Source: a virus
Taxonomy: Duplodnaviria; Caudoviricetes
Length of the DNA: 64,000 nt
Virus record (IMG/VR): IMGVR_UViG_3300020576_006930
Location: 64,001-128,000 of that record
Strand: one strand, 5' to 3'
The translations under genes were made by a program, and so were the position numbers. Shown one piece after another: positions 1-4,375 of this stretch (position 1 is its first letter; each line of letters starts with the position of its first letter). The notes under the pieces were generated by a model. That model was not told the DNA's origin, searched no databases, and saw only the letters and a program-made list of their open reading frames with translations.

Positions 1-59
1 CTTAGGTTCACGGCGAAAGCGAAAACATCGCTGACGCATTCATTTTATTTCCCCCCCTT

Positions 60-135
60 GGCCTGTTAGCTCAATTGGTAGAGCACGACTCTCTAAAAGT
101 TTTTGTTGCGGGTTCGAGCCCCGCACAGGCCTCCA
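60..135 (+). tRNA. tRNA-Sup (anticodon CUA, amber suppressor)
   Basis: GGCCTGT/ACAGGCC acceptor, GCTC/GAGC D-stem, anticodon loop CT-CTA-AA, GCGGG-TTCGAGC-CCCGC T-arm, discriminator T, encoded CCA; 76 nt. Confidence 0.9.
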
Positions 136-140
136 TTTTC

Positions 141-195
141 GGGCGCAATAACAATTTACTTGTTTCTCTAGGTGTGAGTCCTAGTGCGCCCACCA
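141..195 (+). ncRNA. Minimal tRNA-like RNA (acceptor stem + T-arm, no D-arm)
   Basis: GGGCGCA/TGCGCCC-A-CCA, CTAGG-TGTGAGT-CCTAG; only a short AACAA/TTGTT hairpin in between; 55 nt. Confidence 0.7.
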
Positions 196-200
196 TTTTC

Positions 201-390
201 GCGAAGGTATCCATAATGAAGGGCATGGATCCGGTTAGTAGGTTTCATACATCAAGCGCTTGGTGTTTTGAAGGAACCCCGGTGAAGTGTGCGATGGAAG
301 CAAATCCCTATTGGCTTCCCGTCGGTGACGACGAATGGAGCTACAACGCAAGTTGTAGACATGCGGGTTTAAGTCCCGCCCCGAGCACCA
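201..390 (+). ncRNA. Expanded tRNA-like RNA (Leu-like ends, extra arms)
   Basis: 3' GCGGG-TTTAAGT-CCCGC T-arm, CCCGAGC-A-CCA; 5' GCGAAGG-TA-TCCAT..ATGGA D-like arm; three additional hairpins; acceptor stem imperfect. Confidence 0.55.
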
Positions 391-395
391 ATTTT

Positions 396-594
396 GCCGG
401 TGTAGCTCAACTGGATGACGAACTGGGGTAAGAAAGAGTATGGCTTGACCCGTTTCACACCCTGCAGGAAGGTGAACGGCAATAGCCAAAAGATATTTTA
501 CTCAGTAGTAGTCAGATGTGAAAACATTAGAGAGCCAATCGTTGGAACCAATACGGTTGGTTGGTTGGAGGTTCAAATCCTCCCGCCGGCGTCA
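396..594 (+). ncRNA. tRNA-like RNA with ~113-nt D-loop insert
   Basis: GCCGGTG/CGCCGGC acceptor; D-stem GCTC(405-408)/GAGC(532-535) split by a long hairpin; GGAGG-TTCAAAT-CCTCC T-arm; anticodon loop non-canonical. Confidence 0.75.
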
Positions 595-600
595 ATTTAT

Positions 601-703
601 AACAGCGTATCGAATTGTAAAACGAAAGGCAGAGTTCGACTCTATTAGCAAGTCCTGTAGCGTGCTAACTACTTTGTGGGTTTGATTCCTACCGCTGTTA
701 CCA
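601..703 (+). ncRNA. tRNA-like RNA with enlarged D and anticodon loops
   Basis: AACAGCG/CGCTGTT-A-CCA, TCGAA/TTCGA arm, TTAGCA/TGCTAA arm with 12-nt loop, GTGGG-TTTGATT-CCTAC T-arm. Confidence 0.65.
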
Positions 704-709
704 ATTTAT

Positions 710-888
710 ACGGGGTTAGCTCAGTGGTAATGTGAAAGCAAAAATAACGATAGGGTTAGAAGCTAGACTATAATCCGAAAATAATTCGCGGGAGTAGCAT
801 TTATGTATCGTTGGATGACGGTCTTACGATCAAGAGCAACGGACTAATAATCCGTGGGTCGCTGGTTCGAATCCATCACCCCGTACCA
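710..888 (+). tRNA. tRNA-Ile(AAU) with ~104-nt D-loop insert
   Basis: ACGGGGT/ACCCCGT-A-CCA; GCTC-AGTGGTA-[730-833]-GAGC; ACGGA-CT-AAT-AA-TCCGT; TTCGAAT T-loop. Confidence 0.8.
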
Positions 889-894
889 ATTTAT

Positions 895-1045
895 GGGTAG
901 GACGATGAGCGCCGTGAGAGTCGGCAGGAAAGACGTAGTGGAAGGTGGGGATGTAGTAATGGAAGTGTACATCACCAAAATGAGATAACCATTGAGTAAC
1001 TACGTTGAGTATAAAACTTTGGTTCGAGTCCGAAGCTACCCACCA
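895..1045 (+). ncRNA. tRNA-like RNA, anticodon arm replaced by long hairpin
   Basis: GGGTAG/CTACCC-A-CCA, TTTGG-TTCGAGT-CCGAA T-arm, GCCG/CGGC hairpin, ACGTAGT..ACTACGT long stem. Confidence 0.65.
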
Positions 1046-1051
1046 ATTTAT

Positions 1052-1193
1052 GGAGTTATAGCTCAGTGAGCCAAACGAATGGGGCATGAGTAGAATGTGA
1101 GGCTAACATTTGAAAGTTCTCGGTAGGGAGGCATAGTAGAGCGTCGGATTTTAGATCCGAAGGTCGGTGGGTAAATACCACTTAGCTCCACCA
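1052..1193 (+). tRNA. tRNA with UUA (ochre) anticodon and 67-nt D-loop insert
   Basis: GGAGTTA/TAGCTCC-A-CCA; GCTC-AGTG-[1069-1135]-GTA-GAGC; TCGGA-TT-TTA-GA-TCCGA; T-loop GTAAATA deviant. Confidence 0.75.
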
Positions 1194-1199
1194 ATTTAT

Positions 1200-1275
1200 G
1201 GACAATGCTACATGGAAGATGGGTCGCGCTCAAAGCCATGTGGGTTTCGTGGTGAAAATCCACCTCTGTCCACCA
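1200..1275 (+). ncRNA. Degenerate tRNA-like RNA
   Basis: GGACA/TGTCC-A-CCA, GTGG-TGAAAAT-CCAC T-like arm, one long CTACATGG/CCATGTGG hairpin in place of D and anticodon arms. Confidence 0.5.
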
Positions 1276-1392
1276 ATTTACCTGTAAGGGAAACACCTTA
1301 TTGATAACCACTGCGATTTAACCTACACTATAATCATAGAATGAAATGATGTGGTTGAAACGACTACGGTTCATTTTTAAGAATGGAATAAT

Positions 1393-1512
1393 ATGTTAAA
1401 TATATCTACATTGGGTGCGGTTTTTCTGAGCGGCGGTTCTGGTTTATATCTAGGCGGCGGTTTGGGTTTGATACTACTAATAATAGTAATCGTTGTATTG
1501 TTTCGTAGATAA
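1393..1512 (+). CDS. Small single-pass membrane peptide (39 aa)
   Basis: Below ORF-track cutoff: MLNISTLGAVFLSGGSGLYLGGGLGLILLIIVIVVLFRR; Gly-rich then hydrophobic helix then RR. Confidence 0.6.
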   Translation: MLNISTLGAVFLSGGSGLYLGGGLGLILLIIVIVVLFRR

Positions 1513-1532
1513 TTATATACAGACACTTTCTT

Positions 1533-1676
1533 GACAACGTGGCGGAATGTAAATACGCACCTATCGATGGGTGAAGTGGGCCTAGAGGCAAGGCGAAAAG
1601 CGGTGACGCTCCGAGCCAATGTGGTGTCGAACCCGATAAGCTTCACAAATTGCAGGTTCAAATCCTGCCGTTGTCG
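1533..1676 (+). ncRNA. tRNA(Leu)-like RNA with ~90-nt insert in anticodon/variable region
   Basis: GACAACG/CGTTGTC acceptor, TGGCGGAAT..ACGC Leu-type D-arm, GCAGG-TTCAAAT-CCTGC T-arm; no encoded CCA. Confidence 0.7.
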
Positions 1677-1701
1677 TCTTCTTCAAAAAATAAATTAAGA
1701 C

Positions 1702-1730
1702 TTGACCTTTTTACAAAAATGTGAGATACT
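1702..1730 (+). promoter_or_regulatory. sigma70-type promoter
   Basis: TTGACC ... GATACT at about 17-nt spacing, upstream of the ncRNA/tRNA block. Confidence 0.5.
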
Positions 1731-1761
1731 TATCTCCAGATGGAGGTGAGGAACCTCTATT

Positions 1762-1966
1762 CGGTAAGATACGCACAGCAAAAAATAAAAAATAATACAA
1801 GCAAACAACCAAATAACCTATCAATTGGTCATTGGTAAGTTGGTCGAAAGCCAACTCTAAAAAAGTTTTCCGTGATGTAGCGAACACGTAACCTGAATGC
1901 TCGGAGTTGGTGCGTCCGTCAAAACATAACCCGGAGACAACCGTATAATCCGTATCTAGTAAACCG
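1762..1966 (+). ncRNA. Structured ncRNA of unknown class
   Basis: Terminal helix CGGT-A-AGATACG / CGTATCT..ACCG enclosing ACAGCAA and several hairpins (e.g. AGTTGGT-CGAAA-GCCAACT); no ORF. Confidence 0.5.
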
Positions 1967-2040
1967 CGAGTTTAGCTCAGTGGAAGAGCGTTTGATTTAC
2001 ACTCAAAATGTCGGGGGTTCAATCCCCTCAACTCGCACCA
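1966..2040 (+). tRNA. tRNA-Val(UAC)
   Basis: Full cloverleaf, loop TT-TAC-AC, CCA. Confidence 0.95.
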
Positions 2041-2046
2041 ATTTAT

Positions 2047-2124
2047 CACTCCGTCGCCTAGCTTGGTATGGCACTTGCTTTGGGAGCAAGCACAACGTCG
2101 GTTCAAATCCGACCGGGGTGACCA
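2047..2124 (+). tRNA. tRNA-Pro(UGG)
   Basis: Full cloverleaf, loop TT-TGG-GA, CCA. Confidence 0.95.
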
Positions 2125-2134
2125 AAATTCCAAT

Positions 2135-2209
2135 GGGGTCATCTGTATAATGGTAGTACGGCAGCTTTGCAAGCTGTAGGCCGGGGTTCGACTCCCCGTG
2201 GCTCCACCA
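2135..2209 (+). tRNA. tRNA-Ala(UGC)
   Basis: Cloverleaf, G3:U70, loop TT-TGC-AA, CCA. Confidence 0.95.
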
Positions 2210-2213
2210 ATTT

Positions 2214-2372
2214 ATGACGAAGAAGAATAGTCGTAAAATTTTAGAGTTGTTGGAAGAAATGAAAGTCTGTAATAGTTTTCGATCTGCTCGCATTGCCATT
2301 GTCATTAATCGGATGTTGCATCGTTATTACAAACCAACACCAGAACCAACAGATAGAAAACGATTTAATTAA
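2214..2372 (+). CDS. Hypothetical protein (52 aa)
   Basis: ATG..TAA frame exactly fills the gap between two tRNAs. Confidence 0.5.
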   Translation: MTKKNSRKILELLEEMKVCNSFRSARIAIVINRMLHRYYKPTPEPTDRKRFN

Positions 2373-2450
2373 GGTGCTTTAGACCAACTGGCAGGAGTCG
2401 TTGCCCTGAGAAGGCAAAATGTATCGGTTCAAATCCGTTAGGCACCACCA
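2373..2450 (+). tRNA. tRNA-Leu(GAG) with short variable loop
   Basis: GGTGCTT/AGGCACC-A-CCA, TTGCC-CT-GAG-AA-GGCAA; no long variable arm. Confidence 0.85.
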
Positions 2451-2454
2451 AAAT

Positions 2455-2637
2455 ATGCGTCGGCAAACGGTAAAAATGTCAGGTTTTGACCCTTGCGGCC
2501 AAAAGCGGTTTTTTTCTTCTAAAAATGAGGCTTGGAAAGAAGCCGAACGGCAAGCTAGAGAGAGTGCCGGAGCCGTTTTTAAAAAACCATACCGCTGCAA
2601 GTATTGTAAGGGATTTCATTTTACCTCTGTGGATTAG
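2455..2637 (+). CDS. Small Zn-binding phage protein
   Basis: C..KRFFSS..EA...PYRCKYCKGFHFTS motif; the only TAG-terminated gene seen. Confidence 0.7.
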   Translation: MRRQTVKMSGFDPCGQKRFFSSKNEAWKEAERQARESAGAVFKKPYRCKYCKGFHFTSVD

Positions 2638-2652
2638 GTCGATATTATTATA

Positions 2653-2681
2653 TTGACAAACCACCGCTGATCTGATATTAT
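2653..2681 (+). promoter_or_regulatory. sigma70 promoter for RNase P RNA
   Basis: TTGACA-N17-TATTAT. Confidence 0.8.
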
Positions 2682-2692
2682 ATAGGCTGAAA

Positions 2693-3004
2693 GTTTGTCG
2701 TAAGTGACTCTACGCTGGGGAGAAATCCTTAGAGGAAGTTCGCTGGTGAATAGCAGATATGGGAGAATCATCCTGAGCCCTTGTAAAACTCGGATAAGTT
2801 CAGCAGGAAGGGCGAAATAAAGGGGTTTTAGAATAAGCCTGTGATTCGTTTGAACCAAAAATTATCACTAATCCTAAATTGTCAAAGAGTAGTGCTACTC
2901 ATTGTAAAGACAAGGTTGGAGCAGTTACCCTTAACGGGTGACCAGTCGCAAGACTGAGATAAATGTAGGGATAAAACAGGACAGCGGCTACGGCTGCGGC
3001 AAAC
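2693..3004 (+). ncRNA. rnpB: RNase P RNA (divergent, phage-encoded)
   Basis: P1 GTTTGTCGTA/TGCGGCAAAC, P2 CTCTAC/GTAGGG, CR-I GAGGAAGTTCGCTG pairing with CR-V ACAGGACAGCGGCTA (P4), P18 CAGTC-GCAA-GACTG followed by AGATAAATG. Confidence 0.85.
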
Positions 3005-3070
3005 ATCTTGTATAGGTTTTAACAGAACCTTTAGTGACAAGCTGTCGTGAATAACTATAAATCTGTTAAT

Positions 3071-3144
3071 GGGGCTATAGTATAATGGTATCACATTTCC
3101 CTCGCACGGAAAAAATTCCGGTTCGATCCCGGATAGCTCCACCA
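3071..3144 (+). tRNA. tRNA-Ala(CGC)
   Basis: Cloverleaf, G3:U70, loop CT-CGC-AC, CCA. Confidence 0.95.
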
Positions 3145-3148
3145 ATTT

Positions 3149-3367
3149 ATGTTTATCAAAACAAAACTAACAGTGGAAGTTGAAGTCGAGACCCAATTCG
3201 GACCCGCCGATGCTGTAAATTTGATTGAAAATTTGACACGTCATGTTTCCGCTGTGAAATCGATGAAAATAGTTGGGATTAAAACTGACTATGAATATTC
3301 TGATAAGTTTCCTGATGATTTGAATTTTAAAGCGATAAATAATATCCCTTACATTATTAAGGATTGA
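3149..3367 (+). CDS. Hypothetical protein
   Basis: 72-aa ORF between tRNAs. Confidence 0.6.
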   Translation: MFIKTKLTVEVEVETQFGPADAVNLIENLTRHVSAVKSMKIVGIKTDYEYSDKFPDDLNFKAINNIPYIIKD

Positions 3368-3391
3368 CTTTTTTCTTTTATCGCCTATAAT
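3364..3391 (+). promoter_or_regulatory. sigma70 promoter
   Basis: TTGACT-N16-TATAAT upstream of the tRNA block. Confidence 0.7.
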
Positions 3392-3407
3392 TATAGGCAG
3401 TTAGTAT

Positions 3408-3495
3408 CGCGGGAACAGGCCGGAAGATGCCATCGACGCTCATAACGTCGGTCTGAAAAGACTATGGTTGGTGTAACTCCAACTCTCCGCAACCA
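3408..3495 (+). tRNA. tRNA-Met(CAU), initiator-like, with long variable arm
   Basis: CGCGGG..CCGCA-ACCA with C1:A72 mismatch, loop CT-CAT-AA, extra GGTCT-GAAA-AGACT arm, atypical D-arm and T-loop. Confidence 0.7.
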
Positions 3496-3501
3496 ATTTT
3501 T

Positions 3502-3575
3502 GGGGTCATAGTATAATGGTATTACATCAGGCTGGCAGTCTGGTCATCAGAGTTCGATTCTCTGTGGCTCCACCA
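3502..3575 (+). tRNA. tRNA-Ala(GGC)
   Basis: Cloverleaf, G3:U70, loop CT-GGC-AG, CCA. Confidence 0.95.
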
Positions 3576-3584
3576 TTTTTATAT

Positions 3585-3658
3585 TGGGGATTGTTGTAAT
3601 GGAAGCAAAGTGCTCTCTGAAAGCAAAGGCGGTGGATCGATACCACCATCCCCAGCCA
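3585..3658 (+). tRNA. tRNA-Gln(CUG)
   Basis: TGGGGAT/ATCCCCA-G-CCA, loop CT-CTG-AA. Confidence 0.9.
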
Positions 3659-3661
3659 GTT

Positions 3662-3819
3662 TGTAACGGGCACGGTAAACATTCGGCGTCGTAAAGGATA
3701 CCAGCGCCAAAAACATCGGCAATAAGTAGGTTGTTAAGTTCAACTGAAGACGGTGGCAGGTTATCTCCGGCCTAAAGCGGAGTATGAGTTGGATATATTC
3801 CAACCCGTTGTTCGTTACA
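3662..3819 (+). ncRNA. Structured multi-branch ncRNA
   Basis: Long closing stem TGTAACGGGCACGG/CCGTTGTTCGTTACA enclosing four hairpins, the last T-arm-like (GTTGGA-TATAT-TCCAAC). Confidence 0.6.
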
Positions 3820-3822
3820 TTT

Positions 3823-3910
3823 GGAAGGTTGCCAGACCGGTAATGGCTCAGCTTGGAAAGCTGATGGCTCCGTAACAGGAGAACAGGTTCAATTCCTGTA
3901 CCTTCCGCCA
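3823..3910 (+). tRNA. tRNA-Ser(GGA)
   Basis: Cloverleaf with long variable arm, G73, CCA. Confidence 0.95.
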
Positions 3911-3928
3911 ATTTGTAGTGGTAATTTT

Positions 3929-4016
3929 GGAAGGTTGGCTGAGTGGTAAAGCAATAGTTTCGAAAGCTATAGTCTCCGTAACAGGAGCGGGGGTTCGATC
4001 CCCTCACCTTCCGCCA
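3929..4016 (+). tRNA. tRNA-Ser(CGA)
   Basis: Cloverleaf with long variable arm, G73, CCA. Confidence 0.95.
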
Positions 4017-4021
4017 TTTTA

Positions 4022-4375
4022 ATGAAAAAATTACTAACCATTTCTTTTTTGATGATTATAACGTTCGTGGTTATGTCATCCAACGTCTTTGTCAATTGGG
4101 ATCACAGCGGCCTTCCTGATACCGTTTCGGGGTATAACATCTACTACGGGCCAAGTAATCATTACTATACCAATTTCGTAACCGTCGGTTATGTAACGAA
4201 TGTGGTTATTTCCAACATTCCAACCCCCGCTTATTTCTCAGGAAAAACCATTGCGCCGGATGGTTCGGAGTCGGCTTTCGGCAATGAGATTCGTTCCACT
4301 CCAATCCCAGCTAATACCTTACCCAGTATGGTTAGAGATTTTAGCATAAGCAAAGTCGCCGTAACTATTTATTGA
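4022..4375 (+). CDS. Secreted fibronectin type III domain protein
   Basis: MKK-hydrophobic signal peptide; WD..SGYNIYYG..ESAFGNE FN3 pattern. Confidence 0.8.
   Translation: MKKLLTISFLMIITFVVMSSNVFVNWDHSGLPDTVSGYNIYYGPSNHYYTNFVTVGYVTNVVISNIPTPAYFSGKTIAPDGSESAFGNEIRSTPIPANTLPSMVRDFSISKVAVTIY

Follow-up and report, generated by a model that had tools for sequence, protein, structure and literature searches.

The only interruptions that tRNA genes of bacteria and their viruses are believed to have are self-splicing introns located in the anticodon loop. Those of group I, as they occur in bacterial and phage tRNA genes, lie in this loop, measure at least about 200 nt and possess a conserved core (P1-P9). 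In archaea, non-canonical introns of the bulge-helix-bulge (BHB) type are cut by EndA and joined by RtcB, and sites in the D-loop region do occur among them. The eukaryotic mode of tRNAscan seeks introns only at the canonical position in the anticodon loop. It is from this mode that the tRNA introns of the Lak megaphages were derived (PMC6784885). The Lak megaphages (Devoto et al. 2019, PMC6784885) share with the phage considered here a huge genome, many tRNAs and interruptions that belong to no recognised intron class.

The gene described here lies at positions 710-888 of the window, the whole stretch of 64,000 nucleotides that was analysed, which corresponds to bases 64001-128000 of a 139-kb IMG/VR virus record with a CheckV completeness of 39%. 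Like a group I intron, its insert interrupts a tRNA gene within a bacterial-type genetic system, but it has 104 nt, lies in the D-loop and is without an Rfam match. As with archaeal non-canonical BHB introns, a tRNA that is canonical in other respects is interrupted within its D-loop, whereas BHB motifs are no more frequent than in shuffled sequences, EndA and RtcB are absent from the 139-kb fragment and from another, complete phage carrying a gene of this kind (G007), and the gene belongs to a phage whose features are bacterial in type (CCA-encoded tRNAs, homologues of PhoH and HPr). Unlike the Lak introns, the insert is in the D-loop, its site recurs in unrelated phages and it may be no intron at all. 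If it were retained, it would resemble the long variable arm of class II tRNAs (Leu, Ser, Tyr) in adding extra helices at an outward-facing, length-variable site, with the difference that it occupies the D-loop instead of positions 44-48 and is five to ten times larger.

The window derives from a huge phage with a tail, whose long ORFs in the record are all on the + strand, a portal and a baseplate wedge protein being among them, and 48 Rfam tRNA matches are found in the record, the majority at about 45-68 kb; ARAGORN, with introns allowed, finds 43 tRNAs at 38-69 kb. Relatives by portal protein (58-79% identity) are common in IMG/VR and have large tRNA arrays too. An ORF of the record (G000:59884-60732) starts with the prepilin-type motif FTLIELLVV, which we take to be typical of proteins of Planctomycetes/Verrucomicrobia and thus a possible hint of the host. 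The gene at 710-888 is built as follows.

710-729, + strand: 5' tRNA part, pairing 7/7 with 878-884 and 4/4 with 834-837
710-716, + strand: acceptor 5' strand (ACGGGGT), followed by U8 and A9
719-722, + strand: D stem 5' strand (GCTC)
723-729, + strand: head of the D-loop (AGTGGTA), containing G18 G19
730-833, + strand: insert of 104 nt in the variable pocket of the D-loop, after G19-U20-A21
834-888, + strand: 3' tRNA part, from the D stem 3' strand to CCA, as in the ARAGORN cloverleaf of the joined form
834-837, + strand: D stem 3' strand (GAGC), followed by A26
839-855, + strand: anticodon arm with loop CTAATAA, anticodon AAT at 846-848
856-860, + strand: variable loop of five bases
861-877, + strand: T arm with loop TTCGAAT
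878-884, + strand: acceptor 3' strand (ACCCCGT), followed by discriminator A885
886-888, + strand: encoded CCA
889-894, + strand: spacer ATTTAT, which follows the CCA of 710-888 and likewise that of neighbouring units and of normal array tRNAs

The first-pass annotation had proposed that dropping 730-833 gives a textbook 75-nt tRNA, and this stands: deletion of 730-833, or equally of 729-832 (the boundary of the insert is ambiguous by 1 nt), leaves 75 nt which ARAGORN calls as a full-length tRNA-Ile(aat), the single flaw being a C.U mismatch in the T stem (862/876). This joined form has a 7-bp acceptor stem, a 4-bp D stem, a 5-bp anticodon stem and a 7-nt loop (U33, A37), together with the tertiary positions U8, A14, G15/C48, G18 G19, A21, G46, T54/A58 and C56. 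As encoded, the D-loop counts 111 nt against the canonical 7-11 nt, and the unspliced 179 nt receive no ARAGORN call, intron option included, while Rfam RF00005 matches only 818-885, at 28.5 bits versus a cut-off of 29. A 7-nt Watson-Crick acceptor partner, U8 and a 4-nt D-stem partner would be encountered by chance within 280 nt upstream with a probability of about 1e-5. The rules of E. coli IleRS comprise AU at 35-36, A37, A38, A73 and U12-A23, and also C4-G69 and C29-G41; in 710-888 the bases A35, U36, A37, A38, A73 and U12-A23 are present, the pairs 4-69 and 29-41 are G-C, not C-G, and position 34 is A, not G. The exact combination of CCA and spacer, CCAATTTAT, is found at 701, 886, 1043, 1191, 2038, 2207 and 3142. 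Since an independent Logan assembly (SRR32380203) contains the identical 201 bases, the gene is no assembly chimera.

This anatomy creates a puzzle: What is a stretch of 104 nt, with 37% G+C, doing within the D-loop of a nearly perfect tRNA? When the cloverleaf is imposed as a constraint, the insert folds into three weak hairpins (737-764, 768-797 and 804-832), which are no better than those of shuffled sequences (z -0.4 alone, -0.8 in context), and the constrained fold of 710-888 lies 4.3 kcal/mol above the unconstrained minimum. No Rfam family, introns and ribozymes included, matches the insert in searches of 1-4100 at E<=5 and of 130-1700 at E<=10; the group I intron model RF00028 is likewise without a match at E<=5-10, and small self-cleaving ribozymes (hammerhead, twister, pistol, hatchet and others) are absent from 1-4100 and from the inserts of three comparable genes presented below (L119, L124, L132). 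A programmatic search finds 2 BHB-like motifs near the borders of the insert, versus a mean of 4.0 in shuffled sequences, and the sole full motif would yield a D-loop without G18 G19. The earlier judgements that the insert is below group I size and that no clean BHB is visible are thus both borne out. Two other candidate origins were discarded: the insert is no mobile repeat, its sequence being unique in the record and in relatives, and the resemblance of its 3' end to a degenerate copy of the 5' half, suggested by an alternative Rfam alignment, is not significant (p 0.44). An ORF across 833-1087 has no homologue and is spurious.

Enzymes that could remove such an insert were sought as well. 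The splicing endonuclease EndA (PF01974), RtcB (PF01139) and a TadA-like deaminase, for which the first-pass annotation had suggested a search, are all absent from the 139-kb fragment, which represents 39% of the phage. EndA is absent also from four complete or near-complete huge phages, including the carrier of L132 (G007), while RtcB is present in one of the four (G009, without a large insert) and not in G007. TadA occurs in two of three near-complete phages with AAU tRNAs and hence is not informative as a partner of A34. The array does encode, 13 kb upstream, a protein with an HNH-like N-terminus and an RNA_ligase domain (PF09414; G000:50228-51262, L103:12228-13259), which has full-length relatives with 55-67% identity among metagenome proteins, numbering in the thousands, but no sequence match in the PDB; a contig that encodes a 95%-identical RNA ligase exists. 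The usual role of the PF09414 family is tRNA repair.

An intron of a new type could be envisaged, cut at both borders by an endonuclease of host or phage and joined by the ATP-dependent RNA ligase into a tRNA-Ile(AAU) that would read AUU; its conditional removal could also explain the interrupted UUA tRNA next door. This explanation draws on the completeness of the joined form according to ARAGORN, with its one T-stem mismatch, on the demand for AUU, which is the top Ile codon of the phage (33.6 ATT per 1000 codons), on the HNH and PF09414 ORF in the array, PF09414 ligases being found in all three near-complete huge phages with AAU tRNAs, and on the precedent of the Lak megaphages, whose tRNA introns have been called 'enigmatic' (PMC6784885). 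The ligase says little, however, because its family is very common (about 8000 homologues at E<=1e-10), and Lactobacillus phage Lb, which has a D-loop insert, is without an annotated RNA ligase. As there is also no endonuclease candidate, no BHB motif above chance and no ribozyme or intron family, and as insertion sites are limited to variable regions of the D-loop, we regard an intron as plausible but less likely than not, and somewhat behind the explanation that we prefer below.

The first-pass annotation treated 710-888 as a lone oddity; instead, it turns out to be one member of a recurrent class, represented among its neighbours and in unrelated phages. The neighbours form with it the following block.

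60-1275, + strand: block of nine consecutive tRNA-like units
60-135, + strand: intact CUA tRNA
141-195, + strand: tRNA-like unit
201-390, + strand: tRNA-like unit
396-594, + strand: sister gene with an ACG anticodon loop (Arg; manual reading) and an insert of about 117 nt after the D-loop GG
601-703, + strand: tRNA-like unit
710-888, + strand: sixth unit, the gene described above
895-1045, + strand: tRNA-like unit
1052-1193, + strand: sister gene with a UUA anticodon and an insert of about 70 nt between the two D-loop Gs (z -2.6)
1200-1275, + strand: tRNA-like unit

Each of the nine units has at its end a T arm, the acceptor 3' strand and CCA (TCA in one case); the ATTTAT spacer stands behind most of them and also behind normal tRNAs further on, and no terminator-like site is present on the + strand within 60-1275. 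In the sister gene 396-594, additional bases also separate D stem and anticodon stem, and the 3' end is TCA, not CCA, while 1052-1193 has a non-canonical T loop (GTAAATA). The rest of the block units have no recognisable D arm or anticodon arm. One of them, 141-195, has 55 nt and lacks a D arm, although its acceptor stem pairs perfectly over 7 bp and it possesses a T arm and CCA; its short central hairpin could present TTA. The block includes an intact CUA-anticodon tRNA of the amber-suppressor type (60-135) while the phage nearly avoids TAG stops, as well as a UUA-anticodon tRNA body (1052-1193) despite TAA being the main stop; in the 65 long ORFs of the record, TAA is used 41 times, TGA 23 times and TAG once.

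That the acceptor stem, T arm and 3' CCA/TCA are kept in nine of nine units despite their varied interiors would suit a different explanation, namely that 710-888 is a tRNA-shaped carrier, the tRNA frame serving processing or stability and the function residing in the insert, or in an anticodon loop offered as a decoy to a tRNA-targeting enzyme of the host. Phage tRNAs have indeed been proposed to counter tRNA-targeting defences (PMC10264068). The inserts of the three units with an interrupted D-loop (396-594, 710-888 and 1052-1193), however, have in common only a short ATGTGA/GAAA-hairpin motif, which is not clearly enriched (about 2-fold in the array), nothing points to a target, and the full D stem and anticodon arm of 710-888 would be superfluous for a mere carrier, which makes this explanation doubtful.

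Counterparts of 710-888 itself were searched by several routes. Exact and looser anticodon-arm patterns return unrelated hairpins or nothing from IMG/VR, DNA searches in five relatives (58-79% portal identity) give T-arm matches only, and the protein of an HD-domain gene, used as an anchor, leads to no orthologue. Homologues of a 72-aa ORF of the array are found in the same phage population (99.99% identical) and in two distant contigs without the region.

A scan of JGI metagenomes and IMG/VR with a pattern combining the AAU anticodon loop and a standard T loop identified three unrelated phage lineages in which the D-loop of an AAU tRNA gene carries a large insert. The first (L119, JGI) is an AT-rich, phage-like contig of 2 kb in which about 130 nt are inserted after the D-loop GG of a tRNA(AAU), with a promoter-like TTGACT/TATAGT pair of its own read in the sequence upstream. 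The second (L124, IMGVR_UViG_3300037010_000866, identical in L138 and L149) has an insert of 112 nt and five of seven acceptor pairs, and the third (L132), from a phage of 345 kb that is complete and has terminal repeats, is interrupted at the same site by 125 nt. Unconstrained folds of L124 and L132 keep the cloverleaf, with hairpins within the D-loop. The four large inserts, from 104 to 135 nt in length, share no sequence, as would be expected of introns; this is a point in favour of splicing and against retention. Among other phage AAU tRNAs there are normal-sized ones as well as some with a D-loop of 18 nt or with an additional hairpin at position 26. In cellular organisms, the pattern is found in only 59 stretches across the genomes of 185,579 species, and about 29 of these stretches have a valid anticodon stem, in agreement with the earlier statement that tRNA-Ile with A34 is rare; none of these approximately 29 has a D-loop insert, those inspected being normal-sized. 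A brute-force deletion scan produced false positives which were rejected (L107rc 2035-2209, in fact a short unit with a CAT anticodon, L147, and L106 2889-3126), and of four further sequences (L114-L117) only the 3' halves are visible.

These genes can be gathered in a class, which we propose to define by intact acceptor, anticodon and T arms with at least 35 extra nt in the D-loop beside the conserved GG. It encompasses 710-888, its neighbours 396-594 and 1052-1193, the genes L119, L124, L132, L309 and L367 (Asn), and the GAU genes of Streptococcus phages and of the Lb type described below. The large inserts are placed after the D-loop GG, those of the Lb type and of L367 before it, whereas the position of the GG is not clear in the Streptococcus-phage type. 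We take 710-888 to be a genuine gene of a recurring type that has escaped annotation until now, and full-text searches of open-access papers and preprints found no account of tRNA genes from phages or bacteria with inserts in the D-loop.

Is the phenomenon peculiar to isoleucine? As controls, the same pattern was used with other anticodon loops, at about 100 distinct sequences each, a normal-sized ARAGORN call being counted as normal.

AAU (Ile): 15 distinct sequences, 8 normal, 2 with D-loop inserts
GAU (Ile): 84 distinct sequences, 61 normal, 7 with D-loop inserts, in 3 families
GUU (Asn): 111 distinct sequences, 104 normal, 1 with a D-loop insert
UGU (Thr): 99 distinct sequences, 89 normal, 0 with D-loop inserts

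Among distinct phage sequences, D-loop inserts are thus present in 9/99 for Ile versus 1/210 for Asn and Thr (Fisher p 2e-4), and counting by family gives 5/95 versus 1/210 (p 0.012), a modest enrichment that rests on manual classification. The GAU set contains also four tRNAs without a D arm. In cultured temperate phages, the scan leads to unannotated GAU tRNA-like genes with smaller D-loop inserts (37-55 nt): a family with 37 nt in the Streptococcus phages Javan527, Javan454, LYGO9 and JX01, and another with 55 nt, inserted before the GG, in Lactobacillus phage Lb. In the two genomes examined, Javan527 and Lb, the GAU gene occupies the space just before the gene for the small terminase, on its upstream side. 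Substitutions among the four Streptococcus-phage variants fall mostly in the insert, and both two-sided pair changes are located in the two insert helices; these compensatory changes, with n=4 sequences, are no more than suggestive. Similar compensatory changes are seen by eye between two variants of the Lb type.

The recurrence of the architecture bears also on another explanation, in which 710-888 is a pseudogene, that is, a tRNA gene inactivated by insertion of DNA and carried along in a large redundant array. Such an origin would accord with the two normal tRNA-Ile(GAU) genes present in the same array, with the T-stem mismatch, with the loss of D or anticodon arms in several neighbouring units and with an insert that has no significant fold. 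It would leave unexplained why the gene has kept its conserved tRNA positions, the encoded CCA and the spacer, why the insert is neither a repeat nor a copy of a mobile element, and why the same architecture is found in unrelated phages with a preference for Ile tRNAs. We consider a pseudogene quite improbable.

The explanation that we prefer, though tentatively and with a probability of roughly 0.4, is that the insert of 710-888 is a retained expansion of the D-loop which is not removed by a dedicated splicing pathway. The gene would be transcribed with its eight neighbours as one block and its ends would presumably be matured as theirs, by an RNase P cut at 710, the CCA being already encoded; the insert would stay as a peripheral expansion of the D-loop, at most nicked by general RNases, while proteins such as IleRS, EF-Tu and anticodon-loop enzymes would still have access to the acceptor/T-arm helix, to the elbow with G18 G19 and to the AAU anticodon arm. 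What tilts the balance to a retained appendage is the recurrence among the neighbours, in three AAU lineages, in GAU genes of temperate phages and in phage Lb without an annotated ligase. Retention is favoured also because the inserts sit in length-variable, outward-facing parts of the D-loop, as structural tolerance predicts; BHB-type splicing has no restriction to such D-loop sites. Further arguments for it are that the tRNA features and the CCA-ATTTAT punctuation of 710-888 are intact, that no endonuclease or border motif is evident, G007 lacking both EndA and RtcB, and that at least one insert family has compensatory pair changes. Against retention stand the fold of the insert, which resembles that of shuffled sequences, with a cloverleaf 4.3 kcal/mol above the free minimum, and the ATP-dependent RNA ligase with HNH-like N-terminus encoded in the same array. 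Moreover, an elbow domain of about 100 nt probably clashes with the ribosome, and hence a retained insert speaks against ordinary decoding; the intron explanation has no such difficulty.

In functional terms, a preference for isoleucine may have to do with the synthetase. The D-loop is reported to hold no aminoacylation identity element for bacterial IleRS (PMC13752280), a further point in favour of retention. E. coli IleRS is said to require the D-loop nucleotides 16, 20 and 21 for editing and not for charging (Hale et al. 1997, as reviewed in PMC11295145). We infer that this editing role could explain why tRNAs for isoleucine tolerate, or exploit, remodelling of the D-loop. A more specific version of the retained expansion, which we deem improbable, would be that phages favour such inserts in tRNA-Ile, the RNA being charged but handled differently by the host synthetase, with altered proof-reading or faster release, or else staying inactive until the insert is removed. 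If this were true, D-loop remodelling of tRNA-Ile would be a new viral means to rewire host translation.

Whatever the fate of the insert, near-intact tRNA genes with 35-135 extra D-loop bases recur in unrelated phages, escape the standard tRNA finders and have no annotation in the published phage genomes checked. They would imply either a new route of RNA cutting and joining in bacterial cells, or tRNAs that tolerate and use a large elbow domain, and both outcomes would change the way in which phage tRNA sets are counted and interpreted. Cultured carriers such as Lactobacillus phage Lb and the Streptococcus prophages make the question accessible to experiment.

Several other unusual tRNA-like units came to light in the course of these scans. 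In L124, the AAU gene is flanked by more non-canonical units with an acceptor stem, a T arm and odd interiors, comparable to those at 141-1275 of the window. Two JGI metagenome contigs (L113, Ga0075352_1010520; L118, Ga0075353_1010435) have a fragment of bacterial 23S rRNA (Rfam 1030 bits) that holds two tRNA-like units, one of 66 bits corresponding to Ile(AAU) with 8 extra D-loop bases and the other with an enlarged anticodon loop. In four phage sequences from IMG/VR (L226, L270, L273 and L291), a tRNA-Ile(GAU)-like unit has, in place of the D arm, a run of about 17 unpaired, A-rich bases. Phage tRNA genes are recurrently interrupted at a second site too, at about position 26, where 16-45 extra bases lie between a normal D arm and the anticodon stem in L269 (GAU), L405 (GUU), L527 and L575 (UGU) and L128 (AAU). 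Six tRNA-like 3' halves (L468, L494, L491, L519, L232 and L292), which come from several phages and differ in their anticodons, all have GGTTACTTC right before the anticodon loop and no recognisable D stem. Within the window, finally, the CAT-anticodon unit at 3409-3494 departs from the canonical form in its D region, carries a short additional variable arm and has TGTAACT as its T loop, and it is conserved in the relative L107 (about 60% portal identity) on the reverse strand, at approximately 2120-2209 of the reverse complement.
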